Virus record (IMG/VR): IMGVR_UViG_2695420676_000012
DNA length: 36,271 bases
From: a virus
Lineage: Duplodnaviria; Heunggongvirae; Uroviricota; Caudoviricetes
Reading direction: 5' to 3' (one strand)
Both the position numbers and the translations under genes were made by a program. Below are positions 1,614-20,391 of this stretch, one piece after another; the stretch's first letter is position 1; each line of letters opens with the position of its first letter. The notes beneath the pieces were generated by a model. The model was given only the letters and a program-made list of their open reading frames with translations, was not told the origin of the DNA and searched no databases.

Positions 1614-1653
1614 GCCCCTATCGTTATAATACGCGGTAGGGGCGTTTTTGTTT
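1614..1653 (+). terminator. terminator-like hairpin plus T-run
   Basis: 'gcccctA...Taggggc' inverted repeat followed by 'gtttttgttt'; overlaps the TTG-initiated extension of the recombinase ORF. Confidence 0.4.
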
Positions 1654-1662
1654 GGAAATGGT

Positions 1663-3415: not shown

Positions 3416-4414
3416 TTAAAGAGCCTCTAAAGGGCTTAAATCGAGTTCTAAGTCTTCCGGTGTTAAATCAGCTAACGGTGCATTCATCCACTGCGATAAA
3501 TCTCGTTCTATGTCTTCATCACTAATGTAGTTGTTCAGATTGATTGCGTTGGTATCATCAAAATACATTGGCTTAGATGGGTTGGTGTGGATGTATTCAT
3601 TGATGAATGATTTAACATCTTTCAGCTTGCTAATCGGTAGCGTTTCTGTGAATCCGCTATTCATTACCTTACGTGGGATTTTCTTGCCCTGAATATTCTT
3701 TTTAATCCCCATTTCTAAATCACCAGCTTTCCATCCAATGTTAAACAAATGTGAGCATTCAAAGGTGATTTTCTCGCTGGTGTGCTTCTGGTGTTCTCTT
3801 ACCCGTTGCATCGGATCTTTGCGAGTGGTAATTCCATATTTGAAAAACTTCTCGCCAACACGAATTAGATAAAAGTGCATAGGGCGCTGTGCAAACTTGT
3901 TTCTGATAACCTGTTTTCTACCATTCTGAATTGATTTAAGTACCCCCCTAACCAAAGGGCATGTTAACCCGCCTTGTCTGCGGTTATTGTGTAAATCACC
4001 TTTCTTGTGAATCTTTCCGTGGCACTTACAACGAAGAATTAGTTTAGTGTCAACACCCTGATAAGGTTCAGCCAGACCTAACACATCCCACCCTATCGGC
4101 TTGTAGAACTTGCGAGCGTTTTCTAAGTGTTCTTCTTCGGTAAATCTAAACTTCTTCTTAGGCGGTGATACTCTATCTTTGCCAGTAAACTGACCAGTTA
4201 GAACATGACTAATACATGGCGTTTTAACCTTTCCGTTAACTTCTATGCAAACTTTGGTGTTCTGGAATGGTTTCTTTACAGGAAGCACAAAACCACTGTA
4301 TAACCATCCATGCGCTTGACAAACTTTAATGATTCTGGTTTCATATTCGACCGGAGGGGTCGCACGTTTGCTTTTTGCGGTAAATTCGATATCCTTTGCT
4401 AAAGTAGTATTCAT
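3416..4414 (-). CDS. GIY-YIG-like nuclease domain protein (candidate free-standing homing endonuclease), 332 aa
   Basis: Central segment 'FYLIRVGEKFFKYGIT...RVREH...ITFECSHLF...LEMGIKKNI' resembles the GIY / YIG / Arg / FECS / Glu spacing of I-TevI-type nucleases; Cys/His-rich N-terminal part; SD GAGGA before ATG. Confidence 0.4.
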   Translation of the reverse strand: MNTTLAKDIEFTAKSKRATPPVEYETRIIKVCQAHGWLYSGFVLPVKKPFQNTKVCIEVNGKVKTPCISHVLTGQFTGKDRVSPPKKKFRFTEEEHLENARKFYKPIGWDVLGLAEPYQGVDTKLILRCKCHGKIHKKGDLHNNRRQGGLTCPLVRGVLKSIQNGRKQVIRNKFAQRPMHFYLIRVGEKFFKYGITTRKDPMQRVREHQKHTSEKITFECSHLFNIGWKAGDLEMGIKKNIQGKKIPRKVMNSGFTETLPISKLKDVKSFINEYIHTNPSKPMYFDDTNAINLNNYISDEDIERDLSQWMNAPLADLTPEDLELDLSPLEAL

Positions 4415-4456
4415 AGTAGTGAATCCTCAATAAAATAATATTCACTACTATTTATA
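4414..4456 (-). promoter_or_regulatory. TATAAATA box plus 11-bp hairpin occluding the RBS/start codon of the 3416-4414 gene
   Basis: Minus-strand 'TTATAAATAgtagtgaat[loop with GAGG]attcactactATG'; perfect 11-bp inverted repeat 4414-4424 / 4440-4450. Confidence 0.45.
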
Positions 4457-4460
4457 AGAA

Positions 4461-4832
4461 TTAATTATTGTAGTTTTGGAAACCAGTAAGATCGCAAAAT
4501 GAATCAGTGTCATGTGCTGGGGAACGATGTTCTGCTTCGTCAGAGAAAATGTTGGCTACCGGAGATTCCACTTTAACTTCCGGTGCTTCTTCAACATCTG
4601 ACTTAACTTCTTCGACCACTGGTTCAACTGCTGGAGATTCTTCTTTTGTTTCTTCAATGACGATCTCAGGTTCTTTCATTGCTTCAACCAGAGACGGATC
4701 AACTTCGTCGAATACAACTTTATCATCTGCGGTATATTTGTCTATAATGAAAAAATGGTCAGAAATATAGCTAACGTCGCCAGCATATTCTAACAAAAAA
4801 GCGCCTCTGGTGGGCGCTTTTGTTTTATCCAT
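4461..4832 (-). CDS. acidic hypothetical protein (E/V/P-rich); start uncertain
   Basis: Track ORF 4461-4862 starts with TTG and overlaps the peptidase gene and a hairpin; first in-frame ATG at 4832; codon usage matches neighbours better than the antisense S/T-rich ORF. Confidence 0.35.
   Translation of the reverse strand: MDKTKAPTRGAFLLEYAGDVSYISDHFFIIDKYTADDKVVFDEVDPSLVEAMKEPEIVIEETKEESPAVEPVVEEVKSDVEEAPEVKVESPVANIFSDEAEHRSPAHDTDSFCDLTGFQNYNN
4800..4827. terminator. bidirectional terminator-like hairpin
   Basis: 'agcgcc-tctggtg-ggcgct' flanked by A-run upstream and 'tttgtttt' downstream, at the 3' end of the peptidase gene. Confidence 0.45.
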
Positions 4833-5178
4833 TCCACCGTGATTTTTTTGATCTGGAATCAATATGCGTAAAGGTTTTATATTTTCCTAAGCCGTATTGA
4901 GTAGGATATTTCCCATCAAGATAAGCATGAACAATATCAGGAGAAATTCCTTTCACCGATATGTCAGCCGCGCGGCCTCGAACGTGATAGCTATTGGCTG
5001 CCCCGCCTACATTCTTGTTATGAGTCGGGCAACGGTTGCCACTGTTAATAATCACTGGTTTACCGAAGTGCTCTCGTACATCCTCAAGAATCACCAGTAA
5101 TTCAGCGTCGATTGTATCATAATCACATTTTCCGCATTTACATTTAAATTCCTTGCGAGAAAAATGCTTACTTAACAT
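4825..5178 (-). CDS. peptidase M15 family zinc peptidase (D-Ala-D-Ala carboxypeptidase-like), probable endolysin
   Basis: 'FSRKEFKCKCGKC...' then 'SGNRCPTHNKNVGGAANSYHVRGRAADI', the hallmark SG(Y/N)R..HN...S.H..G.A.D signature; SD 'AAGGGGGT'. Confidence 0.75.
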   Translation of the reverse strand: MLSKHFSRKEFKCKCGKCDYDTIDAELLVILEDVREHFGKPVIINSGNRCPTHNKNVGGAANSYHVRGRAADISVKGISPDIVHAYLDGKYPTQYGLGKYKTFTHIDSRSKKSRWNG

Positions 5179-5573: not shown

Positions 5574-6257
5574 TTAAACGTATTTCATGCGCGATTTAAT
5601 GTGCTTATTGATGTTTTCAAGCATCATTGCTTCGTTGCTTTCCCACGATCCTAGCGTCGAATAACGAGTAGAAATTTTATCCGATTTAACGGCAACAATT
5701 CGCTTGCTCTGTTTCTGTATGCGTTTCTCTAAGCGACGTTTTGCCACCGCCGATCCATTCCTAGCGCGTTTGGTTCGGGATTTCTTAGGCTTGTACTTCT
5801 TCATGATAAAAGTCCCTTCCTTGTTCTCTACCTTGATGAAGTTGCCGTTTTCGAGGTTACGCATCATCTTACCGCCTTTGATGGCCTTAATGTTCCCGTG
5901 GGCGTCTAAGACCTTACCGTTGGCGATTGGAACTAGCTTATTGATTTTGCCCCCATCGAAATAGTGTTTCAGATAGTCGTCCTGACTGCCGATCTTCTTA
6001 TCCTTATCCCTTGCGCCCTTGATGAAGATTTGGTGTCTCGTCCCTGATCGGTTCTTGTAGTTGGTATTACCTACAGCTTGCTGAGTCCAGCGAGTAGGTC
6101 TATCAACATTCTTGTTAATCTTCTTCTGGAGTGCTCTGGAAGCAAAGATCGCCCCTTCCCCTATCGCCCTTTCGAATGTATCGGTTGCCTTTTCAGACCA
6201 TTGCCTCAACGCTTTCTTAGTCCTTAGAGCGTTTCGTTTATTGGTACTGGTTGCCAT
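5574..6257 (-). CDS. highly basic (K/R-rich) hypothetical protein, 227 aa
   Basis: ORF with SD 'AGGGGG'; start ATG overlaps the stop of the upstream small ORF (TAAcATG). Confidence 0.5.
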   Translation of the reverse strand: MATSTNKRNALRTKKALRQWSEKATDTFERAIGEGAIFASRALQKKINKNVDRPTRWTQQAVGNTNYKNRSGTRHQIFIKGARDKDKKIGSQDDYLKHYFDGGKINKLVPIANGKVLDAHGNIKAIKGGKMMRNLENGNFIKVENKEGTFIMKKYKPKKSRTKRARNGSAVAKRRLEKRIQKQSKRIVAVKSDKISTRYSTLGSWESNEAMMLENINKHIKSRMKYV

Positions 6258-6258
6258 G

Positions 6259-6429
6259 TTAGCCCCCTAATAACGAAAAGACCCCCGCCAGTGTCCTTAG
6301 CAATTGTTCATCCACGGTCATAGCCGGGAGTTCAAGCCCAAAGGACGTTAGCAGAGGTCTAATAGCTACGTTATAAGTGAGGGCGACAATCAAGAGATAA
6401 CCAAAATATTTCTTAAGTTTATTCTTCAT
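6259..6429 (-). CDS. small membrane protein (56 aa), not in the ORF track; holin-like size
   Basis: Manual translation 'MKNKLKKYFGYLLIVALTYNVAIRPLLTSFGLELPAMTVDEQLLRTLAGVFSLLGG'; SD 'AAAGGGGTG' upstream. Confidence 0.35.
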   Translation of the reverse strand: MKNKLKKYFGYLLIVALTYNVAIRPLLTSFGLELPAMTVDEQLLRTLAGVFSLLGG

Positions 6430-6447
6430 ATATTCACCCCTTTATTA

Positions 6448-6726
6448 TTATTTTTGTTTGAGTATGTCGAGAACTTGGTCAAATTTGGCGTCCATCGCAA
6501 CCACTTTCTTCTCTATACCGTGTAGTGTTTGTTCCATTTGGTAAACACGTTCAGCAATCTGAGTATGGTTATTCTGCATCGTCTCAAACTTCTGGTTTAA
6601 CAATGCGTCGCTGGATTCCAATTTCGACAATCTATTTTCTGTAGCTAATTGATTTCGGTGAAGTCTCCAAAGCCCACCACAAATTAAGGCGATAACACCG
6701 ATACCGCCATATATAATTTCAGTCAT
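6448..6726 (-). CDS. membrane-anchored coiled-coil protein (92 aa; i-spanin-like topology)
   Basis: N-terminal TM 'IIYGGIGVIALICGGLW' followed by coiled-coil-like region; SD 'GGGGG' before ATG. Confidence 0.5.
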   Translation of the reverse strand: MTEIIYGGIGVIALICGGLWRLHRNQLATENRLSKLESSDALLNQKFETMQNNHTQIAERVYQMEQTLHGIEKKVVAMDAKFDQVLDILKQK

Positions 6727-6771: not shown

Positions 6772-6814
6772 ATAAAAATAATCCCGCCTAACTCAAAAGA
6801 ATTAAGCGGGATTA
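6772..6814 (-). terminator. Rho-independent terminator after the J-like gene
   Basis: ~10-bp stem 'atcccgcCtaa / ttaagcgggat' followed on the minus strand by a T-run. Confidence 0.5.
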
Positions 6815-6831
6815 ATTATTAGAATTAAATT

Positions 6832-9800
6832 TTAAGAAACAGAAATACCAGTAGCGGCTTTCTTAGTTACCATTACCGTTAGATCGCTGATATATGCACT
6901 TGGGTTATAGTTGTTAACGCCCTTACAGTAAACTTCAAAAGTCATTGTTACTGCCCCGTGTCCGGCTGGCATGTCAATAACTCCACTGTACATACAGCCA
7001 GAAGTTGCAGTGCGATCATATAGAACACCACCATTTTTCTTAACGATTAGTCGGCAAGTATCCCAATGATCGCTACTTTCGCCACGACGAACAGACCCGT
7101 TATGATGAATCGCTGGAATCACTATTTGGCGATCGAATGGATGATCATCTTCGACCCTTACAGTGATTGCACCATCAGGCCAGTTTGGTTGGCGATGCGG
7201 GAAACTCCTACCAACCACTTTCACGAAGTCACCACGCACCTGATTAGCATCAAGCATACCCAAAATGCGGCAACTTGAATTAATCGTTACGTTGTTCATT
7301 TCGCCGGAATCAGCCACCAAATGACCACGAATATTAGCGTGTCTAAAATGACAAGTGCCATCTTTGCCGATATACCATCCATCGTTACCATTCCAGTTAT
7401 AAGACTGGATATAGTTACCAATTTTAGCATTATCGATAGAGCCATCAATGATATGACCTGTTCCGATCTGTGCGTGTTGGATGTGAGCGCCGTTAATCTG
7501 GGCTGTGCCGATCTTAGCCGTGGTGATACTAGCATCACTAATCTGGGCTGTGCCAATTGCAGCATTACGAATCATCGCATTATCAAGATAAACTTTGTTA
7601 TCTTCGATGCCAAACGGACAAACTTCTGATCCGTCTTGTGGAGCTACCGCGATTTTATCAGCCGTAAAGATGATTCTTGTCGGTTCTGCCGGATCATTGG
7701 TTGCGCTCATATGAATACCAGCCACGCGACCATCTGCATTAACTGCCAGATTATATTTGCTGTTAATGGTTCCCTTCAAAGCATCGATTTTTACATCTGC
7801 TTCCTGATTCACACCAGCAATCTTGCCATCCATTTCTACCCGAACTTGATCAATCTTACTTGCGCTTGCTGCCTCACTGGTAGCAATTGCTTGTTTCAGG
7901 GTAGTAGCAGATGCGCTAACTTCTTTGGTGATATCGCCTTTCAGTTCAGCTTTAACCTGATCAATCTTAGTTGCGCTGGCTTGCTCACTGGTAGCAATCA
8001 GACTCTTGAGAGTATCGGCTGAGGCTTGGACCGTCTGCCCTGTCTCGGTAGTAATCTGTTTATGCATTGCATCAATCTTAGCATCGGCATTAGCGCCAGC
8101 TTGAGCAATAGCATCCGCGATGGTTTCATCTAAGCGATCTTGTAAACCAATCAGGTCTTCCAGTGCTTCTTTGTCCTGATCGTCCCAGCTAATGGTAGAT
8201 TTCATTTGCATGAAATACGGTTCAGACCAAACAGCATCATCCATACCGAAAATATCATAGTGAGCACCACGGATATAATAATCACCGTCAGCCAAATCAA
8301 AGGAAGTATGACTAACGCTATTGGTAGTCACTGCCCTTGCATCGGAGAAAGTATTATCGGTTGCATACTGGATGATTGACCCTGCATAGTCATGTTCTAC
8401 GTCATCCGCCCAGCTAACAAACGCAGTATTAAAGCCACCACGCGCACTAAAACCTTTCATCGGCTTATGTTGTGGGTTGATAGCCACTAAACGCGCTGGG
8501 GCGCTCTCTGAGTTGTTATAGCCCTTGACTGATACTTCTACCGTCAATTCACGGGAAAGGCCGTTAAACTGGTTCATATCAAGCGTATAAGTCCATGATT
8601 CAGGATCGCGGGTACGGTACTGAATAGACTTACCAGCCTTGTTAGTTACCTTGATAATGTATGCTTCAAACAGGTCACTAAACTTGTTAGCTTCACCGTT
8701 GATCATCACATCTAATTGTTGCTGATTTTCCCATTCGATAATCAGATCATTGCCTTCGAAAGTACCAGGCGTGCTACCCTGATTTTTGATTCGAATAACC
8801 GGAGTCGGCAATTCATAGGTAACAGTAGGATTCTGGTTAACCAGTTCCACCCATTCGGAACGAGCAATAATACCGAAAGCACAAACGCGGTAATCGTAGG
8901 AGCGATCTTTTGCCAGTGCATTGATATTGAAAATTTGCTGTGAAGTCTGCCCCAGCTTAATCCAGTTAGGCGATCCACTTACACGGTAATCAATCTGGAA
9001 ACCGTAGCGGTTAAAATCTTCCGGTGCATCCCATGTCAAAGTAACGTTTTTACCGTGGATTGTCTCACCAGTTGCCTTAATTCTGAAATTAGTCGGTTTC
9101 TGTACTGTCATTGAATCCGGTAAACCAGTAGGTCTATTGTCTGGAGTTGCCGCATAGTTCAGGTCAGTATAAACCTGAGAATTATATTCTGTGGCGGTGA
9201 TAGTCATCATCCCAGCAATACCAGAATCAATAGAACGATCAATTGCAGTAATGCGCCAAAGTGAATTATTCAGTTTCAATTCATCATAGGTTACGCTGAT
9301 AACGTCCCATACTTCGGCGGTGAATGCGTCAGTAGTCATAAAGCTGATAACCTGAGTGATACGAGATTTATTTCGTTCTACACTCGCAAGTTTATCAATC
9401 TGGGCTTTAGACTTAACAAAACGATATTCAATATCTTTAGCGATAATTCGACCATCTTGACGAATAGTAGCATCGTTTTCAGCATCAGCCGGATAACGTA
9501 GCATTTGCTCTGAATAGTCGATTGATGGTTCTTGATACATCGCGTTAATGGTATTGAAATAACCGTTAGTGCCACCTGTTTTCAGTGATACCTTACCCAT
9601 CATGATATTGTCTTCATTGAAGGTATGCTTAACAATATCAGGAGCATCCAGTTTCAGCGTAATACGTCCAAAGGATTCGAACATCACCCCGCCGAAAGTC
9701 TGCATAAGGCTAGTTAAGTTCTCTTTAAAGCTGGCGTTCGGATCACATGCACCGTTGGAATGTAAATCCATCTGGCGTACTTGTTTACGCACTTTCAGGA

Positions 9801-10578
9801 ATGAATCAACGTTAATATTTTCAATCGGTACACTAAGACCATACTTTGTATTTGTCAGATAATGGAAAATCTGGTCCACGCCGTTAGTGCTAGCCTCAAT
9901 AGCATTGGTTTCAAGGTTACGAATCTTTAAGCCCATAACATCGACCGCTACCTGGCTATTAGGCTGGAGAATATCAACACCAGCAGCCAAAGATTTGTCA
10001 TCACGACGTAAAACAATACACATGGTCGCAATGCCGTTACCCTGATACCGATCATCCCAATCAGCGCCCAAATGATGTTTAGCTAAATCCAATGCAGTGT
10101 TAGGATTTTTACCCGTGCGAAACTCGACTTCTAAAACTTTGCGGTATTCGTCTTTAATGTTTCCTTTATCGAGAATGCCATCACGAATTGTCATATTCTG
10201 GCTAATGAGAACGTTTTTATTATCGATGTGCAGTGCTTTAAAGTGATCGATCTCACCTTCGGCAATAGCAAAAATTTGTACCAGCTTGTTATTTTCACGC
10301 TGTGAAATTGCCTTGTAAACGCAGATTGCACCAGTTCGGGTAGTACCGAAAAGAACGGGTAAAACTGTCTTAGGATCGTTTGATGTTCCTAGTGTCACCG
10401 CATTATCTGGGCTTTGTACTTTAGGTGTTTTTGGTGCGCCTACAGTGGAAGCGATCAAGGTCATTGCACCAGCAGCCATACCGATAGCGACTGCGGTCAT
10501 AACAGAAAATGTTGCAGCAGCAGCCATCCCAGCAGACGCACCAGCAATAACCGCGCCTACCAATATTTCAAATCCCAT
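6832..10578 (-). CDS. central tail fibre / host-specificity protein (lambda gpJ-like), 1248 aa
   Basis: Size and position after a K-like gene; C-terminal ~110 aa ('DDHPFDRQIV...VIDMPAG...TGISVS') resemble my recollection of the lambda J receptor-binding end; SD 'GGGGGTG'. Confidence 0.8.
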   Translation of the reverse strand: MGFEILVGAVIAGASAGMAAAATFSVMTAVAIGMAAGAMTLIASTVGAPKTPKVQSPDNAVTLGTSNDPKTVLPVLFGTTRTGAICVYKAISQRENNKLVQIFAIAEGEIDHFKALHIDNKNVLISQNMTIRDGILDKGNIKDEYRKVLEVEFRTGKNPNTALDLAKHHLGADWDDRYQGNGIATMCIVLRRDDKSLAAGVDILQPNSQVAVDVMGLKIRNLETNAIEASTNGVDQIFHYLTNTKYGLSVPIENINVDSFLKVRKQVRQMDLHSNGACDPNASFKENLTSLMQTFGGVMFESFGRITLKLDAPDIVKHTFNEDNIMMGKVSLKTGGTNGYFNTINAMYQEPSIDYSEQMLRYPADAENDATIRQDGRIIAKDIEYRFVKSKAQIDKLASVERNKSRITQVISFMTTDAFTAEVWDVISVTYDELKLNNSLWRITAIDRSIDSGIAGMMTITATEYNSQVYTDLNYAATPDNRPTGLPDSMTVQKPTNFRIKATGETIHGKNVTLTWDAPEDFNRYGFQIDYRVSGSPNWIKLGQTSQQIFNINALAKDRSYDYRVCAFGIIARSEWVELVNQNPTVTYELPTPVIRIKNQGSTPGTFEGNDLIIEWENQQQLDVMINGEANKFSDLFEAYIIKVTNKAGKSIQYRTRDPESWTYTLDMNQFNGLSRELTVEVSVKGYNNSESAPARLVAINPQHKPMKGFSARGGFNTAFVSWADDVEHDYAGSIIQYATDNTFSDARAVTTNSVSHTSFDLADGDYYIRGAHYDIFGMDDAVWSEPYFMQMKSTISWDDQDKEALEDLIGLQDRLDETIADAIAQAGANADAKIDAMHKQITTETGQTVQASADTLKSLIATSEQASATKIDQVKAELKGDITKEVSASATTLKQAIATSEAASASKIDQVRVEMDGKIAGVNQEADVKIDALKGTINSKYNLAVNADGRVAGIHMSATNDPAEPTRIIFTADKIAVAPQDGSEVCPFGIEDNKVYLDNAMIRNAAIGTAQISDASITTAKIGTAQINGAHIQHAQIGTGHIIDGSIDNAKIGNYIQSYNWNGNDGWYIGKDGTCHFRHANIRGHLVADSGEMNNVTINSSCRILGMLDANQVRGDFVKVVGRSFPHRQPNWPDGAITVRVEDDHPFDRQIVIPAIHHNGSVRRGESSDHWDTCRLIVKKNGGVLYDRTATSGCMYSGVIDMPAGHGAVTMTFEVYCKGVNNYNPSAYISDLTVMVTKKAATGISVS

Positions 10579-10997
10579 TATTCACCCCCGAATCTATAAA
10601 CTTGTTCATAGTCAATGTCTGAAACAGGAATGGTCATCCAGATACCATCTTCTTCAACAAGGCCATAACCGGAATAATGAGGAACTACGGAATAATATTT
10701 GCGGTTTCCTAATTTGTGGGCTGTGACCAGTAAGTCGCCGTCCTGTAAATCATCAGTGACTAATTTGAAATGTTTCTTAATTGGTTGAAGGATATTTGAA
10801 TACCCGCTTAATTCTTTGCAGATTTTCAAGCCTTCTTCTTTAGTTGAATATTTTTTATAAAGAGAATTATATAGGTCAGTACCAGCGAGAATATCGATGA
10901 TCTTACATGCAATTAGATTGCAATCATTCTCGCCTTGAACGAACTCCTGACCTATTAAAGAATTGATGTAATCGGTGATAAGCCTAGTTTTTAGCAT
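10578..10997 (-). CDS. tail tip protein with NlpC/P60-like motifs (lambda gpK-like)
   Basis: 'ENDCNLIACKI' (Cys) and later 'VVPHYSGYG' (His); start set at the ATG with SD GGAGGT (track ORF extends to 11153 through a start lacking an SD). Confidence 0.45.
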   Translation of the reverse strand: MLKTRLITDYINSLIGQEFVQGENDCNLIACKIIDILAGTDLYNSLYKKYSTKEEGLKICKELSGYSNILQPIKKHFKLVTDDLQDGDLLVTAHKLGNRKYYSVVPHYSGYGLVEEDGIWMTIPVSDIDYEQVYRFGGE

Positions 10998-11043
10998 GTT
11001 GAATACCTCCATGCTGTTATTTACTAGGCTTAGGGAGAAGGGA

Positions 11044-11697
11044 TTATTTCTTCGATGAATGCCACTTGCTTTCCGATTGCCAGCGCCCGGTCCTTGAGAA
11101 GAATAGATCGTTCTCGTTTCCAACATAGGAACGGTGGATACCATCGGAGGCATGACTACGAGCGTTTTTATCTAGAACTTCCCAGATACTATTAAGCTGA
11201 AATTCTGATTCGTTTTTACACTCATCATCTTCATGTTCGATGTTAATACCGATGGAATCGACTACCCCACGGAAAACAGGGTAAGTGGTTTCAACCTTGC
11301 CCGTGTTGGGGTTAAGGAAAACCATCTCGATTTTCACATCGGATTTATCGAATTGCTTGTTTCGAATGAGAGTAATGTATTCTTCGCGAACGTTAGAAAC
11401 GGTTACGTTAATCCCGTTGTTGTTGATCTCCTTCTCTTCGGTATTCGATGAGATTTGAAGAAAATCACCCGTTGCGAGATACGTAAATCCGTTATAGTCC
11501 AAATCGAAATACCCATCTGTAAGCCGTAGAACGTCCCCTGACGCTGTTATCACTTCGATAATGTGAAACATCGATCCAGTGGAAAAAAGCTGCGGTAGCG
11601 TCAATCTAGACACGTTCTGACCTGTCTGGTCGTTGTAGACCTCGATGAAGTCCAGATTAGTGCATAGTTTGCTGAATGATTCCTGAATAGTTGCCAT
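11044..11697 (-). CDS. minor tail protein (lambda gpL-like by position and size)
   Basis: ~218 aa between the M-like and K-like genes; start ATG overlaps the upstream stop (TAATG); weak resemblance to gpL. Confidence 0.4.
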   Translation of the reverse strand: MATIQESFSKLCTNLDFIEVYNDQTGQNVSRLTLPQLFSTGSMFHIIEVITASGDVLRLTDGYFDLDYNGFTYLATGDFLQISSNTEEKEINNNGINVTVSNVREEYITLIRNKQFDKSDVKIEMVFLNPNTGKVETTYPVFRGVVDSIGINIEHEDDECKNESEFQLNSIWEVLDKNARSHASDGIHRSYVGNENDLFFSRTGRWQSESKWHSSKK

Positions 11698-12257
11698 TAT
11701 ACATTCTCCACTAATTCGAATTTCATCTTGCCAATCTGGGCGATCTTCCAATCGATATTTTCAGTTTTGAGAACAAATTCACCTTCTACGTTCTGATACT
11801 TGATCACCTCACCAGCCAGGACGTTTTGACGCAAGTTAGGGAAGAGTTTCATTTCACCACCTGATTTCACATCTTCGGTGATCGTGTAGATTTTCTTGTG
11901 GTTCTCAAACTGGATGATAGTTCCCGCTTTCAGTGTTCCGGTGAAGTTGGAGAGTCTTACCTTACGCCCACCGCGAGCAGTACCAGCAGCAGCCGTTACC
12001 ATCTGGCGTACATCGCCTGTATATTTTGAAAAGTAAGACAGTGGCACACTAAAAGGACGACCAAAAAGGTGACGTGCTACAAATTCTTTTACTTCGTTAA
12101 TATCCTGAGCCATGAAATTAGCTGTAAATTCTGCTTCATAAAAATGAATACCAGTAAAGCGACGCTGGAACTTACCAGAAATAGATTGCGCCTTGAAGAA
12201 AGGCTGTTTTGATTTAAGAGTAAAATCTGTGATTTTAATATTCTTGGATTTGAACAT
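11697..12257 (-). CDS. minor/distal tail protein (gpM/Dit position), 186 aa
   Basis: First gene after the tape measure; SD 'GGGGG' lies in the 3' arm of the 12263-12302 hairpin. Confidence 0.4.
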   Translation of the reverse strand: MFKSKNIKITDFTLKSKQPFFKAQSISGKFQRRFTGIHFYEAEFTANFMAQDINEVKEFVARHLFGRPFSVPLSYFSKYTGDVRQMVTAAAGTARGGRKVRLSNFTGTLKAGTIIQFENHKKIYTITEDVKSGGEMKLFPNLRQNVLAGEVIKYQNVEGEFVLKTENIDWKIAQIGKMKFELVENV

Positions 12258-12258
12258 A

Positions 12259-12306
12259 GAAAAGCCCCCATAGTTTTATGATTATTTATCACTATGGGGG
12301 CTTTTA
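12259..12306 (-). terminator. intercistronic hairpin (attenuator) between tape-measure and distal tail genes
   Basis: Perfect 11-bp inverted repeat 'agcccccatag / ctatgggggct' with 18-nt loop; on the minus transcript followed by 'UUUUCU' and the ATG; 3' arm contains the SD. Confidence 0.45.
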
Positions 12307-12307
12307 A

Positions 12308-14737
12308 TTACATCTTACGACGCTGAACGTCTTCTATCGCCTGAGCAACAAACTTAGCGTGACGTTTGATAGCATCCATGACCATCTTGTCTGAGCTATT
12401 AACGTTGCCGTTAATGTTCAAAGGCGCATTAACTTCAATCGGCTGAGAGTTACCACCACCTGATTTTTGAGCAGCAAGGAAGTCTTTCAAATCACCGTTA
12501 GTACGCTGATCAACTACTCGTTCACCCTTATCAAGCAACCATGTACCCTCACGAGGGATGTTATCAATACCATCATGAGCCATACCGCTAACGTTAGTAG
12601 ACTTGATGTTTGCGATGTTCCCCATGTTCTGAGAAACAGCCAATGCAGCAGCCGCGATTTTTTGACCTGTGGTGACGTTGGTCGGATCGTTCCATGCATC
12701 GGTAGCAGCCGTCCACATGTTCACCGTCGCTTGTCCGATAGAGAATGCTTTATGAGCATTGAAAGCCATCTGCATAGCTTTAGTGTTTTCCTGCCCGAAG
12801 AGAGTCATTGCAGCAGCAAAACCGCCGTACATATCATCGGCTATTGACTGGCGAGCATCAGCATATTTCTTCTCAATTGCAGCCATTCGTTTTTGATGGT
12901 TTTCATTGAGTTTTTCTAATGCTTCCATCCGTTTAGCCGGATCGGTGATCCCATCAATCTTGAGTTTATCGGTCTTATAATCTTGTTCAGCATCCGATTT
13001 CTCTTTATCGATTGCATTAAATTTAGCAAACGGATTATTTGAGTCCTGATAGTCTAAGCTATTGGTCAATTGATTGGTTTTAAAACCATCCATTCCATGC
13101 AAAGAATCTTCAATCTGTGAATAACTTTGTTCGGTATCATTCACACGACGCATATATTCTTCGTAGGAGATAGCCTTACCATCAAGTAACCGTTTATGGC
13201 TTTCTAACTCGTTGTCCCTGATTTGTTGCAATTGTGTTAAAGCATTCAGAGCATCAACCGGATCAGCACCTAAGACCATTTTGTATACGTTTTCAGTATT
13301 CTGATCGATTAGCGCCTGGCGTTTCGCGGCTGCGTCTTCCTGAGAGATTAAGCCCAGAGCTAAAGCAGTATCCAAATCTTTCAAACTGGCTTCTAACTGC
13401 TTGTTTTGAGAAGCAATAGACGCGGCGACCTGCCCTTGCAATTTAACATCAAGTGCATTCAGTCGCTTGATTGCGTCCTCGCGTTCTTTCTGTGCTTTTT
13501 CTGCGGCTTCCTTAGCCTTTTTAGCTGCCTCTTCCGCTTTCTTGCGTGCTTCTTCTTCGGCTTTCTTCTCGTTGCCAGATTTACCCAATGATTCTGGTCT
13601 TACTGGTTTATTTGGTATAGTCAAATCAGTGTTAGGATCTGCCTTGCGTGTCAGATGTTCCCCGTTATCGACAACAATCAGAGAGCCATTTTTCTTATAA
13701 GAATCACCAAAACGTTTCTTAAATCCTTCAACATCAAAGCCAGCAGTACGAGGATCGACACCAGCACCACGGATCGCGGCCTTTTCCCAATCTGCCAGAT
13801 TATTCCAACGCTTTTCTTTATTGTACTTGTCAATAATTTTTTGAGCGTCTTTATGGTTGGCGTTAAGAATACCGCCAGTTGCGGTCTTGCCTTCTTTATT
13901 CAGTCGATCTAATGCCCTGAATAGAGAACTCTTTTCCCAATCAATATTAAACCAGTCAAATAACCAGTTTAAACTATCAACCAGCGGACCAGAAATGGTC
14001 ATACCGACACCTTTCAGGTTATTTTCCAGCTTATTGATATTTTGAGAAAATTTATCATATTTTTTAGCGTTTTCTTCGGTGACGTTAACAGATTGATTCT
14101 GAATAGCGATCATCGCCTCTTGAGCAGTATTATATTTCTCAAGCTGGCTGGTCATATGGCTTGAATCACTGGCTAAAGATTCCATCATGAACTTGATTTC
14201 AGCCATTGATTTTCCGGCTTTCTTCATGTCATAGAACACTTGGATCGCCGCTTTCATACCACCTTGCGGATCAGTCATGAAGTGAGCATAGTTTTCTAAC
14301 TTAAGGCCAACCGATTCTAAGTCATCGGCAATACCGCCACCGTTAGCCCATGCATCACCCATTTTATCTAAGGTGTCTTTGTTGATATCACCGAATTTTT
14401 CAACTGTTAGGCCAGTACCAGAAAATTCCTTTTCCAGTCTTTGAAGGGATTCAATCGAGAGTCCGGTCGCCCTAGATACTTCTGAATACTGTTTAACGTA
14501 TTCCGCACCAGCTTTAGCGGCTGCAACCACTGCGGTCGCAACTAAACCGATACCACCAGCAGCCAAACCAGCAGAGCCAGCGATCCCACGAAGAGATCCA
14601 GTCAGACCAGACAAGCCACCACCAAAATCAATATTACTTGCCTTTTCAGACAAATCATCGAGCAGGTCAGCGGCTTCACTAGTGCTTCTCTTTAGCCCTT
14701 TATTATCCCCTTCTATTGTTACTATATGTTTTGTCAT
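12308..14737 (-). CDS. tail tape measure protein, 809 aa
   Basis: Long Ala/Gly- and coiled-coil-rich protein between the chaperone pair and the tail-tip genes; SD 'AAAGGGGT'. Confidence 0.8.
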   Translation of the reverse strand: MTKHIVTIEGDNKGLKRSTSEAADLLDDLSEKASNIDFGGGLSGLTGSLRGIAGSAGLAAGGIGLVATAVVAAAKAGAEYVKQYSEVSRATGLSIESLQRLEKEFSGTGLTVEKFGDINKDTLDKMGDAWANGGGIADDLESVGLKLENYAHFMTDPQGGMKAAIQVFYDMKKAGKSMAEIKFMMESLASDSSHMTSQLEKYNTAQEAMIAIQNQSVNVTEENAKKYDKFSQNINKLENNLKGVGMTISGPLVDSLNWLFDWFNIDWEKSSLFRALDRLNKEGKTATGGILNANHKDAQKIIDKYNKEKRWNNLADWEKAAIRGAGVDPRTAGFDVEGFKKRFGDSYKKNGSLIVVDNGEHLTRKADPNTDLTIPNKPVRPESLGKSGNEKKAEEEARKKAEEAAKKAKEAAEKAQKEREDAIKRLNALDVKLQGQVAASIASQNKQLEASLKDLDTALALGLISQEDAAAKRQALIDQNTENVYKMVLGADPVDALNALTQLQQIRDNELESHKRLLDGKAISYEEYMRRVNDTEQSYSQIEDSLHGMDGFKTNQLTNSLDYQDSNNPFAKFNAIDKEKSDAEQDYKTDKLKIDGITDPAKRMEALEKLNENHQKRMAAIEKKYADARQSIADDMYGGFAAAMTLFGQENTKAMQMAFNAHKAFSIGQATVNMWTAATDAWNDPTNVTTGQKIAAAALAVSQNMGNIANIKSTNVSGMAHDGIDNIPREGTWLLDKGERVVDQRTNGDLKDFLAAQKSGGGNSQPIEVNAPLNINGNVNSSDKMVMDAIKRHAKFVAQAIEDVQRRKM

Positions 14738-16980: not shown

Positions 16981-19900
16981 TTACCCTAATTTAGCTTCAA
17001 TTGCAGCAAGACGTTCACGAAGAAGTTTATTTTCTTCGCTCATTTCTTGGACCGCTTTAATTAAAAGCGCGTTCACTGCGGAGTTTGAAATTGTTAAAAT
17101 TTCTTCTGGGTTATCAAGACCACCAATTTTTGCGGTTTTAACAGCTTCCGGTAATACCTCTTGTAAATCCTGTGCGATAATACCAATCTCATGACCTATA
17201 ACTTCTCGGTCATTAAGAGATTTAACTTTATCGTAGGTTTTAACTTTGAGTTTATTTACCTTATCCACCGCATTTTCTTCGTAATCTTCAACATTAATTT
17301 TCAGACGACCATCGGAACGAATATAAACATCGTTAAAGTTACCATTACCAGGAGAATAGAAAGTACCATCATGATGAAATTCAAACACCGCTTGAGGATG
17401 ACCAGCCGCTGGCGATGCCTCCGCAGATCCAACGCGAATAATTGCTTGCCCCCAATTTTGAGGAACACGACGCATACCAAAATCGACGGCAGTTGTATAC
17501 CCTTGATTGGTGATTAAACTTCTTCCTTTAATAATTGGATAATAGCTATCTGGTCCTACATAACCATGATCGACAAATATCGGCGCTTCTAATCCCCATT
17601 GATCGCCCCAACCTCCAGATTGGCTAGCAGTCCAACGTTCACCATGAACATAGAATCGAACGTTATTGACATGAGTCATTTCGACACCTTTTGGACTTAG
17701 CGCGATATCACCCGCGTTTGTAATATTGATAGCAGCATTAGTAGCATAGCTATAGAACGCTAATCCATTATCAGCACCACCTTTACCGATATACCAGTTG
17801 TTATTATCAGCACAAGTACCCAGCAAATATATAGACGAATCACCCGTTTCGGCATTCATGACGATTGCGTCAGAACCACGATTAACTTTAAGTTTCCCGA
17901 AGAAGGTGTTTTTAATGGTATTATCACCCAATCGTTCAAATTCTGCGAAAAATCCTTTTGAGTCACGAAGACTTAAAACGTTATTTCGACCTGTATTGCT
18001 TGCCCCCCAATGGACGAGTTCCATATAGTCCATAGATTGACGAGAACCAGCTTTAAAGAAAAGGTTGTCTTCAAGACGGGTACTACCATCAATTCCGAGA
18101 TGCAAACAACGAGCGGTTGCAGTACCACCTAAATACAATCCACCGTCCGCAAAATCATAGCTGAATGGTCTGCGATTATTCCAACTACCAAAAGAATCTT
18201 TTAAATCGGTAGTAAGAATATGGAAGCTAGAACCATCATTGCGTAAAATCAAACCATAGTTACCACCTTTGACAGCCAAACGAGCATTTTCAGATAATGC
18301 AACTTCGCTATTCATTACAATTTTCTGGCCTTTACCGCCAGTAATATGCAATTCACCATCTTCAATCAGGTTTATAGAGTTTTGACCGTTATCGTTCCAC
18401 CAAATAAAATCTTTGGTTGTTCCATCACCAAAACCAAACCAACCATTACGAACATCTTGTCCAGTGCGATAATCCATGAAATTAAAATGACTTGATTCGT
18501 TTGGTCCTCGACGAATATCAATACCAGAATTTCCAGTAACACCGCCATCCAATGTTAATTTCTTGACATGTAACCCGGATGTTGCTGTCAGCAATAATTC
18601 CTGATTTGTATCTTCGTATCCAGTAGCAAGACGATATGCGTTATCATCAACTGTCTCATGCCAGATAGTGGCAGGAGCAGAACTACGGAAGCGACGCAAC
18701 ATTTTCTTAGCATTTGTTTGCTGTTCGTTCAAATGCTCAATGTCGTATTGGCCTTGATGGTTTCCAGCAAAATTTAACGTTCCACGGTTGCTAAAGTTAT
18801 TGAACGATGAAATGTTAAGAGCATCAAAAATTTCATCTGCAACAGGTTTTTCACCACCCAGATATTCAGGAGTATCCAACAGGTTTAAAGAAACACCACC
18901 GGAAGAAACTTGATATTCTGCTAAAACAAATCCTGTATGTGCACCGTAGTAAGCGTAAAGATCGTAATTGTCGCCATCGGTTGGAATAGCGCAAAAATGT
19001 TGTTCATGATGCCAAATAGTATAATACGCATTGAATACAACACCTTTCGGGCTATTGTTGCCGCATCGAATCACCAATTCGATAATATTGGCTTGTCCAT
19101 TATGTCCTACGTTATAACCGTTACCACCAACCAAACGGATCTTAGCCGTGCGACCGTGTTGTTGTGGCATTGTCAAAGTGCCTAGTTTAAACCAACCACC
19201 CTCGATACCAAAATTAAGCGTCTTCTGGAACAGTCGGTCAATTTCTGCTTTCGAATATGCGCCAATTTCAGCCGGAGTAGGTTTATCACCTTCATGATAC
19301 ATGCGGTGAGAATATGCCAAATGTCCCAATTCATCATAGCCGTATGTTCTTACCGTATGAACCGGATTAGACCCATAAGTGAACTCAAAACCACGAGCAT
19401 GATTAACGCCGGATGGGTGCGGAACATGCAAGATCATTGCAATATGACCCGCCAGGTCATTCATGCGAAATGCACCAAAGTAATCAAGATTAAGAGCACT
19501 CGGATCATCAAAAGGGTTTGCGGTCTTAGACAGCAAATAGCCATCAGTGCAAGTGTTTACGTGCTTTTTGATGTACTTGCCATCACTTGATCCATCGGCT
19601 GCATCAATACGGCTTTCTAAACGTGCAAGTTCGGAATCAGTGTAAGACTTGTTATTGTCAACTTTGCTATGAATTGCTGAATTTTTGGCTTCAACATCAC
19701 GGGTTAATGCTGCGACGTTATCCGCTGCCTCTTGCTTATTGGCTGCAATCACACCAGTAAGGTTATTGTAGGTGTCAGTTAACTGATTTTCCGCATAGGC
19801 GTGATTTGCTGCGATAGTGCGGTCAGTTTCTGCCTTAATCAAATCAACTTTGTCATTGATTGCTTTGTGATTGCTTACGATGGTTGCATCGGTACGGGAT

Positions 19901-20391
19901 TTAATATCATCAACTTTTTTATTGATGCGGGTGTCCAGTTCCTGAGTTGCTACAGCAGCCGCATTTTTATTAGCGTTGATGGTATCCGACAATTCAGCTT
20001 TAACACCAGCAAGATCGGAAGCAGCTTTATTTTTATTGGCCTCGATTGTCGCGTCGGTTTCGCGTTTAATTACATCAACTTTATTGTTAATTTCTGCGTG
20101 ATTTGCTGCGATGGTTGCATCAGTAGTTTGTTTAATTTCATCTACTTTAGCGTGAATATTGCGGCCATTTACTGCAATTGTGCTATCCAATTCTTGTTTG
20201 TTAGCATCAACTTTAGATTCTAGTGCCGCGTGAGTTTCAGGAGAAACAGAGATTTGAACTACTTCATGATCTCGGTCTTTGGTAAAAATAACATGGTCTT
20301 TAAGGTTGATTGCTACCTCACCGACCTGTAATTGTTCCGGCGTTGGCTTTTTGCCAGAAACATTAGTTCGTTTAAATTGGATTGATTGCAT
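16981..20391 (-). CDS. tail fibre with C-terminal intramolecular chaperone (peptidase S74-type) domain, 1136 aa
   Basis: C-terminal 'SDGRLK...GIIAQDLQEVLPEAV...LLRERLAAIEAKLG' matches the autoproteolytic chaperone module of T5 L-shaped fibre / endosialidase-type fibres; N-terminal ~22-aa 'KVD.IK..TDATI.ANH' repeats; SD 'GAGGTGA'. Confidence 0.8.
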   Translation of the reverse strand: MQSIQFKRTNVSGKKPTPEQLQVGEVAINLKDHVIFTKDRDHEVVQISVSPETHAALESKVDANKQELDSTIAVNGRNIHAKVDEIKQTTDATIAANHAEINNKVDVIKRETDATIEANKNKAASDLAGVKAELSDTINANKNAAAVATQELDTRINKKVDDIKSRTDATIVSNHKAINDKVDLIKAETDRTIAANHAYAENQLTDTYNNLTGVIAANKQEAADNVAALTRDVEAKNSAIHSKVDNNKSYTDSELARLESRIDAADGSSDGKYIKKHVNTCTDGYLLSKTANPFDDPSALNLDYFGAFRMNDLAGHIAMILHVPHPSGVNHARGFEFTYGSNPVHTVRTYGYDELGHLAYSHRMYHEGDKPTPAEIGAYSKAEIDRLFQKTLNFGIEGGWFKLGTLTMPQQHGRTAKIRLVGGNGYNVGHNGQANIIELVIRCGNNSPKGVVFNAYYTIWHHEQHFCAIPTDGDNYDLYAYYGAHTGFVLAEYQVSSGGVSLNLLDTPEYLGGEKPVADEIFDALNISSFNNFSNRGTLNFAGNHQGQYDIEHLNEQQTNAKKMLRRFRSSAPATIWHETVDDNAYRLATGYEDTNQELLLTATSGLHVKKLTLDGGVTGNSGIDIRRGPNESSHFNFMDYRTGQDVRNGWFGFGDGTTKDFIWWNDNGQNSINLIEDGELHITGGKGQKIVMNSEVALSENARLAVKGGNYGLILRNDGSSFHILTTDLKDSFGSWNNRRPFSYDFADGGLYLGGTATARCLHLGIDGSTRLEDNLFFKAGSRQSMDYMELVHWGASNTGRNNVLSLRDSKGFFAEFERLGDNTIKNTFFGKLKVNRGSDAIVMNAETGDSSIYLLGTCADNNNWYIGKGGADNGLAFYSYATNAAINITNAGDIALSPKGVEMTHVNNVRFYVHGERWTASQSGGWGDQWGLEAPIFVDHGYVGPDSYYPIIKGRSLITNQGYTTAVDFGMRRVPQNWGQAIIRVGSAEASPAAGHPQAVFEFHHDGTFYSPGNGNFNDVYIRSDGRLKINVEDYEENAVDKVNKLKVKTYDKVKSLNDREVIGHEIGIIAQDLQEVLPEAVKTAKIGGLDNPEEILTISNSAVNALLIKAVQEMSEENKLLRERLAAIEAKLG

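Follow-up and report, generated by a model that had tools for sequence, protein, structure and literature searches.

The 36,271-nt stretch of tailed-phage DNA analyzed here (hereafter the window) carries a central tail fibre gene whose 3' end resembles the receptor-binding tip of phage lambda gpJ, which raises the question of whether this likeness also tells which outer-membrane receptor the fibre recognizes. The gene (6832..10578, minus strand) was identified as a tail tip/central tail fibre gene from its 1248-aa ORF, Pfam and PHROGs matches and RefSeq homologues; it matches PHROGs tail fibre families, and the RefSeq homologues are annotated as 'phage tail tip protein'. Its product is made up of a hub and an fn3 region, a coiled-coil shaft and a beta-prism plus the receptor-binding domain (RBD), with Pfam matches to PF13550 (weak), fn3, PF09327 and PF12421. 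Positions 6832-7170, in which the initial annotation had placed a lambda J-like C-terminal RBD, comprise the stop codon and the last 112 codons of this minus-strand gene. The residues quoted there are indeed found on the minus strand of the ORF, whose C-terminal end reads ...VEDDHPFDRQIVIPAIHHNGS...GVIDMPAGHGAVTMTF...VTKKAATGISVS* in translation.

Profile, sequence and predicted-structure matches indicate that the 3' end of the fibre gene almost certainly encodes a gpJ-type RBD. The Ig-like domain (aa 1132-1248; 6835..7185, minus strand) matched the gpJ C-terminal RBD profile Ig_GpJ_C (PF12421) across the last 117 residues of the protein (E=1.6e-34; profile positions 17-135 of 135), with 119.3 bits against a gathering cut-off of 26.2 bits. 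In phmmer searches of PDB chains, residues 1068-1247 aligned with residues 947-1131 of lambda gpJ (8iyk/8xcj, E~3e-34), and the best sequence match among solved structures was 'A8 gpJ 713' (9wca, E=3.6e-44). The alignment to the lambda J C-terminus that had been proposed as a check is therefore significant. A monomeric AF2 model of the RBD had a pLDDT of 78 overall and above 85 across most of the domain, and with this model Foldseek retrieved 8xck, 9wcb, 9wca and 8xcj, all solved gpJ fibres, at E~1e-16 and TMq 0.65-0.67; the next match (E=1e-4) was 12 orders of magnitude weaker. With the last 143 residues as query, a word-indexed search for homologues yielded no more than 17 proteins, of which at least 11 bear the label partial; these mainly served to pad the structure-prediction alignment. 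The RBD occupies the very C-terminal end of a central fibre of siphophage type, with PF09327 immediately upstream, and it is an ordinary further member of the known gpJ RBD family, with nothing conceptually new. The assignment of a lambda J-like RBD to the fibre thus stands, and so does the significant homology behind the statement that it 'closely resembles' the lambda gpJ C-terminus; the wording overstated the degree, as 41% of residues are identical to lambda J across 180 aa, and 42-44% within the Ig domain.

The lambda-like portion is limited to the last ~180 residues, the remaining ~1070 being not detectably lambda-J-like. Against the whole-protein NCBIfam model lambda_TipJ (NF049904), the fibre scored 194 bits versus a cut-off of 1950, with the alignment confined to aa 1069-1248 (profile positions 974-1163). 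The Phage_Tail_Tip domain (PF09327, E=4.4e-17; aa 931-1092; 7303..7788, minus strand) spans the fibre shaft and beta-prism, and over aa ~830-1040 PDB matches included the tail fibre protein 9l9p_S, the F2-pyocin tail fibre 25vf_A and other J-like fibres. The last beta-prism turns and the hinge (aa 1068-1131; 7186..7377, minus strand), delimited by phmmer and multiple alignment, are homologous to lambda J 947-1010 and end in a conserved ..NQVRGDFVK junction. At the N-terminus, a hydrophobic stretch (aa 1-47) precedes a gpI-like segment (aa 48-107; 10258..10437, minus strand), which was detected by BLASTP (35% identity to aa 156-223 of phage 434 gpI, pairwise E=1e-6) and by a weak PDB match to 8iyk_I. 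The lambda M-L-K-I gene set is not found upstream of the fibre gene; the gpI-like segment is instead fused to the fibre N-terminus. The upstream tail-tip module, which is not lambda-like (10578..14737, minus strand; PHROGs and Pfam), consists of genes for a tape measure protein (12308-14737), a pb9-like distal tail protein (11697-12257), a Gp84_N-type hub protein (PF09931; 11044-11751) and a DUF6950 protein (10578-11153), all on the minus strand. The PF09931 gene, the weak PF13550 match and the preceding distal tail protein recall the tip modules of RcGTA/phiJL001 type (Gp84_N hub plus Phage-tail_3 'host specificity' protein); these matches are weak, and the likeness concerns the backbone only, not the RBD.

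The DNA represents a temperate siphophage of E. coli, uncharacterised and here in the prophage state. The window matches prophages in E. coli chromosomes, homologues with 78-98% identity belong to Escherichia coli wherever the source names one, and the prophage was present in 62 of 5426 complete genomes, all in keeping with the enterobacterial host predicted earlier. The window encodes terminase, portal and capsid as well as tail and lysis functions, and the sister prophage in UTME-9 is annotated alike. A separate long side tail fibre of 1136 aa (16981..20391, minus strand) was assigned by phrog_1699 (1e-126), Gp34_trimer and a Peptidase_S74 chaperone domain. When the variable genes close to the attachment site were scanned with PADLOC, only marginal matches emerged.

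Identity to lambda J is unevenly distributed within the RBD, being concentrated in the scaffold (57%) and falling to 20% in four variable loops with indels (10 of 51 positions, with 5 gapped columns). The scaffold motifs FDRQI, C.L.V.KNG, DMPAG.G and KK..GIS are common to both fibres; DDHPFDRQ, DMPAG.G and KK..GIS belong to the scaffold or to conserved loops throughout the family and are just as much present in the OmpC-binding A8/phi330, 1A2/Sakai and 434 fibres. The four variable stretches coincide with the specificity hotspots 1012, 1048/49, 1077/78 and 1107 of lambda gpJ, which were defined experimentally (PMC6646904), and in the predicted beta-sandwich they are interleaved with conserved loops. 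L1 (aa 1126-1135, FPHRQPNWPD; 7174..7203, minus strand; alignment and entropy) corresponds to hotspot 1012, with lambda S1012 falling in a gap of the window sequence. L2 (aa 1158-1174, HHNGSVRRGESSDHWDT; 7057..7107, minus strand) is the counterpart of lambda 1048/49 and of the hairpin that, in phi330, is predicted to reach into the OmpC barrel (PMC12502783); it is equal in length to lambda L2 and 5-6 residues shorter than the phi330 hairpin. L3 (aa 1188-1197, DRTATSGCMY; 6988..7017, minus strand) corresponds to lambda 1077/78. L4 (aa 1216-1229, VYCKGVNNYNPSAY; 6892..6933, minus strand) corresponds to lambda D1107, whose aligned residue is N within a dissimilar loop (KGVN-NYNPSAY here, RHSADIPPYTF in lambda). 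The L4 segment VNNYNP (aa 1221-1226) fits a pattern N-N-[WY]-x-P that is also found in A8/phi330 (ANNWTP) and 1A2 (VNNWYP), the lambda counterpart being HSADIPP. A disulfide between Cys1195 in L3 and Cys1218 in L4 was considered, as both residues are present in the window type; strain 24AR0357 has Ser at position 1195, so this idea stays weak.

Comparison of related prophages suggests how such loops are exchanged. Mosaic boundaries against a sister prophage delimit an exchangeable specificity cassette (~aa 1119-1228, ~330 bp; 6896..7222, minus strand): compared with ETEC1739 (L004), DNA identity stays at 100% as far down as ~7223, drops to 38-72% within 6896-7222 and returns to 87-97% below 6895, and protein identity to the sister prophage is 99% in the backbone and 60% in the RBD. 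At least five RBD alleles with 50-85% identity are carried on a 99%-identical backbone in E. coli, and Salmonella homologues have an unrelated C-terminal domain. Diversifying selection was sought within the window-type allele group and was not found; comparison with two alleles of the same type gave instead an RBD dN/dS of 0.12-0.18, loops included, with dS of 0.4-1.4, indicating purifying selection. Judged from these sequence comparisons, the RBD behaves as a swappable specificity cassette of ~330 bp, and its diversity arises via cassette replacement rather than by detectable positive selection within a type.

Which porin this cassette addresses can be approached from the characterised members of the family, all of which bind a trimeric porin. 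The nearest characterised RBD is that of VT1-Sakai (Sp15) J (57% identity in the RBD and in the cassette, 71% in the scaffold, 33% in the loops), which corresponds to the Eligo gpJ chimera '1A2' that delivers via EDL933 OmpC. Every readable stretch of the 1A2 DNA translates to VT1-Sakai J sequence, and the equivalence is claimed for these stretches only, because the DNA was taken from a machine-read supplementary PDF with frame-breaking errors, the readable stretches spanning three frames. The Sakai and window fibres have L4 loops of equal length with a common VNN[WY]xP motif and differ in the sequences of L1 and L2, L1 being shorter in the window fibre; in VT1-Sakai J itself the backbone is a genuinely lambda-like J, and lom and stf lie downstream, whereas the window fibre is followed by a lysis cassette. 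The A8 fibre (phage phi330) shares the fold (Foldseek E=1.8e-16, TM 0.67) and the L4 N-N-W/Y-x-P motif, but its RBD is 45% identical and has a long L2 hairpin of its own, ENFNSNNQQS, which is predicted to enter the OmpC barrel. OmpC is the receptor of A8 (PMC11338833; PDB 9wcb is A8 gpJ with OmpC) and of phi330, the latter by Keio knockout and complementation (PMC12502783), and the contact of the phi330 hairpin A1015-P1020 with the OmpC rim is an AlphaFold3 prediction, not a measurement (PMC12502783). Phage 434, cited as an OmpC binder, also has an RBD 45% identical to that of the window; the two fibres align over their last ~176 residues (46% identity, BLASTP E=2e-39) and share the hinge (..TQVRGDFVK in 434), but the four loops differ in length and sequence and everything upstream is unrelated. 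Lambda, which binds LamB (PMC11101478), is the most distant characterised member, with 42% RBD identity. In its closed (8xck) and LamB-bound (8xcj) structures, lambda gpJ resembles the window fibre in Pfam domain, Ig-like fold, C-terminal position after shaft and beta-prism, conserved scaffold motifs and the placement of four variable loops at equivalent hotspots. None of 50,697 phage records matched the fibre gene in a Megablast search, so there is no cultured close relative to lend a receptor assignment. Gifsy-2 J and HK97 J, users of OmpC and LamB, respectively, were set aside as receptor comparators: both have a different, non-PF12421 C-terminal domain and are therefore uninformative on this family.

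On this comparison the receptor is likely to be a trimeric porin, and an OmpC-type general porin is our best guess, with about an even chance of being right; the sequence by itself does not reveal the receptor. Against OmpC count the low loop identity to its characterised binders and an L2 shorter than the phi330 hairpin. The initial prediction of a maltoporin-type receptor is not sustained. It had in its favor the domain family and fold common with lambda gpJ, an L2 as long as that of lambda and a scaffold stretch, DDHPFDRQIV, identical to the lambda one, but the motifs on which it relied occur family-wide, the closest characterised relative is an OmpC binder, and homology to lambda ends ~180 residues from the C-terminus. 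The loops carry indels in L1, L3 and L4 besides their low identity, S1012 is absent, and D1107 is replaced in an unlike L4. Moreover, lambda and the OmpC binder A8 are themselves 43% identical, which implies that similarity at such a level does not carry receptor specificity. Since the receptor-touching parts are unlike those of lambda and the closest studied relatives bind OmpC, LamB is not predictable from this fibre; the receptor is probably not LamB, and a lambda-like use of this porin seems distinctly improbable.

A tentative alternative is that the RBD binds another outer-membrane protein, one unrecorded for natural gpJ-type RBDs, such as OmpF, PhoE, an NmpC/OmpN-type porin or a non-porin barrel. 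Its loops are only 20-33% identical to those of any characterised member (22-33% for the OmpC binders), and in a tree of 16 RBD sequences, a p-distance neighbour-joining tree that is not robust, the window, P0068 and P0079 form a branch of their own. Lambda gains the use of OmpF via four substitutions (PMC6646904), indicating that specificity in the gpJ fold is labile, and the several alleles on one E. coli backbone could mean different receptors, not OmpC variants. However, nothing points positively to one or another of these candidates, OmpC binders have the L4 motif as well, and these binders sit on two separate branches of the tree. The motif itself may be partly structural, as the loops vary among the OmpC binders themselves, and the contacts used by 434 are not those of phi330 (PMC12502783). 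A narrower version, in which the window-type alleles recognize a receptor that is neither LamB nor OmpC and unrecorded for natural gpJ-type domains, and the alleles constitute a natural specificity panel, is unlikely. That the prophage is defective and the RBD a remnant in decay, with no current receptor-binding role, is scarcely credible: defective E. coli prophages are numerous and the fibre gene has no DNA-level match among cultured phages of the collection, but the 1248-codon ORF is intact, the structural and lysis genes accompany it in the window, the low dN/dS persists across the RBD despite dS up to 1.4, and the same allele occurs at ≥99% identity in nine complete genomes that are unrelated and come from chicken, frog, human, pig and dog. 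Strains PK8568, ES2 and DEC5A have the identical allele.

Adsorption might proceed as in the solved lambda gpJ-LamB and A8 gpJ-OmpC complexes. By analogy with these, the fibre would be a trimer, the last ~130 codons of 6832-10578 providing the gpJ-family (PF12421) Ig-like RBD at its tip, and the four hypervariable distal loops L1-L4 would dock into a trimeric outer-membrane porin; binding would then be relayed via the beta-prism and coiled-coil shaft, so that the tail tip opens and DNA is ejected. The separate side tail fibre probably gives the first, reversible adsorption step.

For annotation, this example suggests caution: a gpJ C-terminal domain identifies a receptor-binding module, not a receptor, since the recognizable conserved motifs are those of the scaffold, and of the five characterised specificity types compared here, four bind OmpC, not LamB. 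The gpJ RBD family supplies parts to retarget lambda-derived DNA-delivery particles (PMC11338833), and a 330-bp cassette that has sharp boundaries and occurs in several natural alleles on a non-lambda backbone adds retargeting candidates, the ..RGDFVK hinge marking a natural fusion point. Should the alleles prove to be a specificity panel, each might suit a porin, or a variant of a porin, of its own and be graftable onto lambda-based delivery particles. Beyond the cassette, an intrinsic-terminator-like hairpin with a 16-bp stem followed by a T run (6779..6814, minus strand) starts 18 nt past the fibre stop codon.

The central tail fibre protein is encoded by a 3747-nt ORF on the minus strand (6832-10578; 1248 aa), whose 3' end is the segment 6832-7170 in which the initial annotation had recognised a C-terminal receptor-binding domain (RBD) closely resembling that of lambda gpJ; the plus-strand frames of this segment are full of stops. 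The strings quoted there (DDHPFDRQIVIPAIHH, VIDMPAGHG, and KKAATGISVS) were all found within the last ~110 residues of the ORF. Residues 1132-1248 matched Pfam family PF12421 (Ig_GpJ_C, 'Tip attachment protein J, C-terminal receptor binding domain') at E=1.6e-34, scoring 119 bits where the cut-off is 26, and a phmmer search of all PDB chains aligned aa 1068-1247 significantly with lambda gpJ 947-1131 (8iyk/8xcj, E~3e-34), a still better match being 'A8 gpJ 713' (9wca, E=3.6e-44), an engineered gpJ chimera. The AlphaFold2 model of aa 1065-1248 is a beta-sandwich (pLDDT 78), for which Foldseek returned strong matches only to the four solved gpJ fibre tips (E~1e-16, TM 0.65-0.67): lambda in the closed state (8xck) and with LamB (8xcj), and A8 in the closed state (9wca) and with OmpC (9wcb). 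The next match was 12 orders weaker. The family is narrow: of 1.84 billion representative proteins, only 176 reached E<=1e-3, and 58 of them reached E<=1e-30. The likeness to the gpJ C-terminal domain is real and far beyond chance, although 'closely' was an overstatement, as an alignment of 180 aa gives 41% identity to lambda J and the Ig domain gives 42-44%. The RBD is an ordinary further member of a known domain family, which had already been annotated automatically, as the precomputed annotation of fibre-protein homologues includes PF12421. Directly 3' of the stop codon, a strong terminator-like hairpin on the minus strand (6779-6814; 16-bp stem and T run) resembles terminators annotated downstream of J in phages 434 and 21.

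The domain behaves as an exchangeable specificity cassette. The sister prophage of E. coli ETEC1739 has DNA identical to the window (100%) as far down as position ~7223; identity falls to 38-72% across 6896-7222, and is 87-97% below 6895, continuing into the downstream genes. Dozens of E. coli homologues share ~99% identity over aa 1-1067 and 92-97% over aa 1068-1131, compared with 60% in the Ig domain; in further homologues, Ig-domain identity is 52%, 62%, or 80-85%, and in one Providencia protein 51%. In Salmonella homologues, a backbone of 74-86% identity is followed, past a conserved GD(F/I) hinge, by an unrelated C-terminal domain. The window allele, at an identity of at least 99%, occurs in 9 of 5426 complete genomes, always in the tail tip gene of this prophage family, and its hosts were isolated from chicken, frog, human, pig, and dog. 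Within its allele group, purifying selection acts on the domain and also on its loops (dN/dS 0.12-0.18 at dS 0.4-1.4), and the domain therefore represents a maintained, functional specificity type rather than a relic. Such clean boundaries, together with the allele panel, could serve to retarget lambda-type delivery particles. The C-termini of Salmonella enterica homologues (P0100-P0120), Gifsy-2 J (L005 37032-37955), and HK97 J (L011 4142-8032) do not belong to PF12421 and all start past the same '(F/V/I)GDI' hinge, which appears to be a recombination joint common to unrelated RBD modules across siphophage central fibres.

A 16-sequence alignment revealed a conserved scaffold broken by four stretches that are variable and rich in indels, L1 (aa 1126-1135), L2 (aa 1158-1174), L3 (aa 1188-1197), and L4 (aa 1216-1229), which alternate in the predicted sandwich with three conserved loops (DDHPFDRQ, KNG, and DMPAGHG). 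They map exactly onto the lambda J hotspots 1012, 1048/49, 1077/78, and 1107, which were tied to receptor switching and natural diversification by Maddamsetti et al. (PMC6646904), and agree with the 'four bottom loops L1-L4', which in lambda are inserted into LamB (PMC11101478). A cysteine pair, Cys1195 in L3 (6994-6996) and Cys1218 in L4 (6925-6927), is present only in the window-type group (window, P0068, P0079, and PD23) and might form a disulfide staple joining the two loops; it is not strictly conserved, strain 24AR0357 having Ser at 1195.

The receptor is probably a trimeric porin, and among individual porins OmpC stands at about even chances. OmpC is bound by the A8 chimera (45% identical to the window cassette; delivery assays in PMC11338833 and the solved complex 9wcb), phage phi330 (45%; Keio ompC knockout and complementation, PMC12502783), phage 434 (45%; as cited in PMC12502783), and, in its EDL933 form, the 1A2 chimera (57%). 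The phi330 RBD is 99% identical to that of A8, and 1A2 matches the C-terminus of VT1-Sakai prophage J over every readable stretch of a machine-read supplement. In a simple neighbour-joining tree, OmpC binders flank the window's branch on both sides. The L4 motif N-N-[W/Y]-x-P (VNNYNP in the window, ANNWTP in phi330, VNNWYP in 1A2) may be taken as a positive pointer to OmpC, the phi330 L4 hairpin contacting the OmpC barrel rim extensively in an AlphaFold3 model (PMC12502783). Against OmpC, loop identity between the window and any OmpC binder is only 22-33%. Overall identity is a poor guide, as lambda and A8 are 43% identical yet use different porins, and phi330, 434, and lambda share 35-40% identity despite differing receptors (PMC12502783); another outer-membrane protein is a less probable receptor than OmpC.

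LamB, which had been proposed from the gpJ-like motifs, is an improbable receptor. These motifs belong to the scaffold and conserved loops and are also present in OmpC binders, and they therefore mark the domain rather than the receptor. Lambda, at 42% identity to the cassette, is the most distant of the characterised members compared; scaffold identity to it is 57%, whereas the loops reach 20% with indels, S1012 has no counterpart, and D1107 aligns to N within a dissimilar L4. In favour of LamB and against OmpC, L2, which in phi330 is a hairpin predicted to enter the OmpC barrel, is 5-6 residues shorter in the window and has the length of lambda L2. The initial annotation was right about the domain and the host, and its inference of LamB is not supported.

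Beside what was observed (domain family, predicted fold, fibre-tip position, cassette boundaries, allele diversity, purifying selection, and gene context), a porin-triggered mechanism can be proposed by analogy. From homology with the structures of lambda and A8, the fibre would be a trimer, and its L1-L4 would enter the extracellular mouth of a trimeric porin; the RBD base would then spread, and the change could be relayed along the beta-prism, which has IGTAQI-type repeats (aa ~950-1110), and along the coiled-coil shaft (aa ~800-940; PF09327), after which the hub would open and the plug be released (PMC11101478).

Considered in full, the fibre protein is not a lambda J. The NCBIfam model lambda_TipJ aligned to aa 1069-1248 only (194 bits against a cut-off of 1950), and only the last 176 residues aligned with the lambda-type J of 434 (BLASTP; 46% identity, E=2e-39). 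The best deposited-phage match of the N-terminal 826 aa was 39% (Escherichia phage DCP80), followed by ~22% in Vibrio phages, and no lambdoid phage was present among the 25 best records. Upstream of J, lambda has M-L-K-I, whereas the window has genes for tape measure, pb9-like distal tail, Gp84_N-type hub, and DUF6950 proteins. At the N-terminus of the fibre protein (aa 1-107; 10258-10578, minus strand), a hydrophobic stretch (aa 1-47) precedes residues 48-107, which align with the C-terminus of the lambda-type gpI of 434 (aa 156-223; 35% identity, pairwise E=1e-6). The four genes immediately upstream gave no gpI family match, and a gpI plug module appears, from these alignments, to be fused to the N-terminus of the hub/fibre protein. 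Downstream, a lysis cassette with an M15 endolysin (4825-5178) is present instead of lom/stf. A separate long side tail fibre (1136 aa; 16981-20391, minus strand), located between head and tail genes, combines a T4 gp34 trimerisation domain with a Peptidase_S74 intramolecular chaperone at its C-terminus and gives gp37-like PHROG matches (1e-126); it is probably a second, independent host-range determinant. The fibre gene and the endolysin gene are separated by three small minus-strand genes (5574-6726), for which no informative family match was obtained: one encodes a coiled-coil protein of 92 aa, one is an ORF of 56 aa that is annotated in relatives, and one encodes a protein of 227 aa with a weak 'minor tail protein' PHROG match. 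They may have a tail accessory, lysis, or exclusion role.

The window is an E. coli prophage, with matches to its first 24 kb (80-99% identity) in 62 of the 5426 complete E. coli chromosomes. Full-length fibre-protein homologues (78-98% identity) come from E. coli wherever the source names an organism, and the predicted enterobacterial host is therefore correct; among 50,697 phage records, no DNA-level relative of the fibre gene was found. In E. coli UTME-9, the element lies inside a truncated ycdX beside the csg curli operon (L001 11620-12273), and the window begins at the same junction. A large serine recombinase (1648-3342, plus strand) is present instead of a tyrosine integrase. The prophage G+C content (38-45%) is below the E. 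coli average of ~51%, and its genes are for the most part annotated as hypothetical. Two members of this prophage family lie in the UTME-9 chromosome, one near 2.78 Mb and the other near 3.38 Mb, both with a 1248-aa tail tip gene and one with a window-type RBD (99.7% DNA identity). Genes between recombinase and lysis cassette vary within the family (window 3416-4862, minus strand; UTME-9 L001 15415-16948; ETEC1739 L004 6661-8075): in the window and in ETEC1739, a short ORF accompanies the gene for a 332-aa protein with an endonuclease-like match (phrog_681), and UTME-9 has three hypothetical proteins of ~160 aa each. This interval may be a variable site for cargo or defence genes, but a PADLOC scan of it gave marginal matches only.
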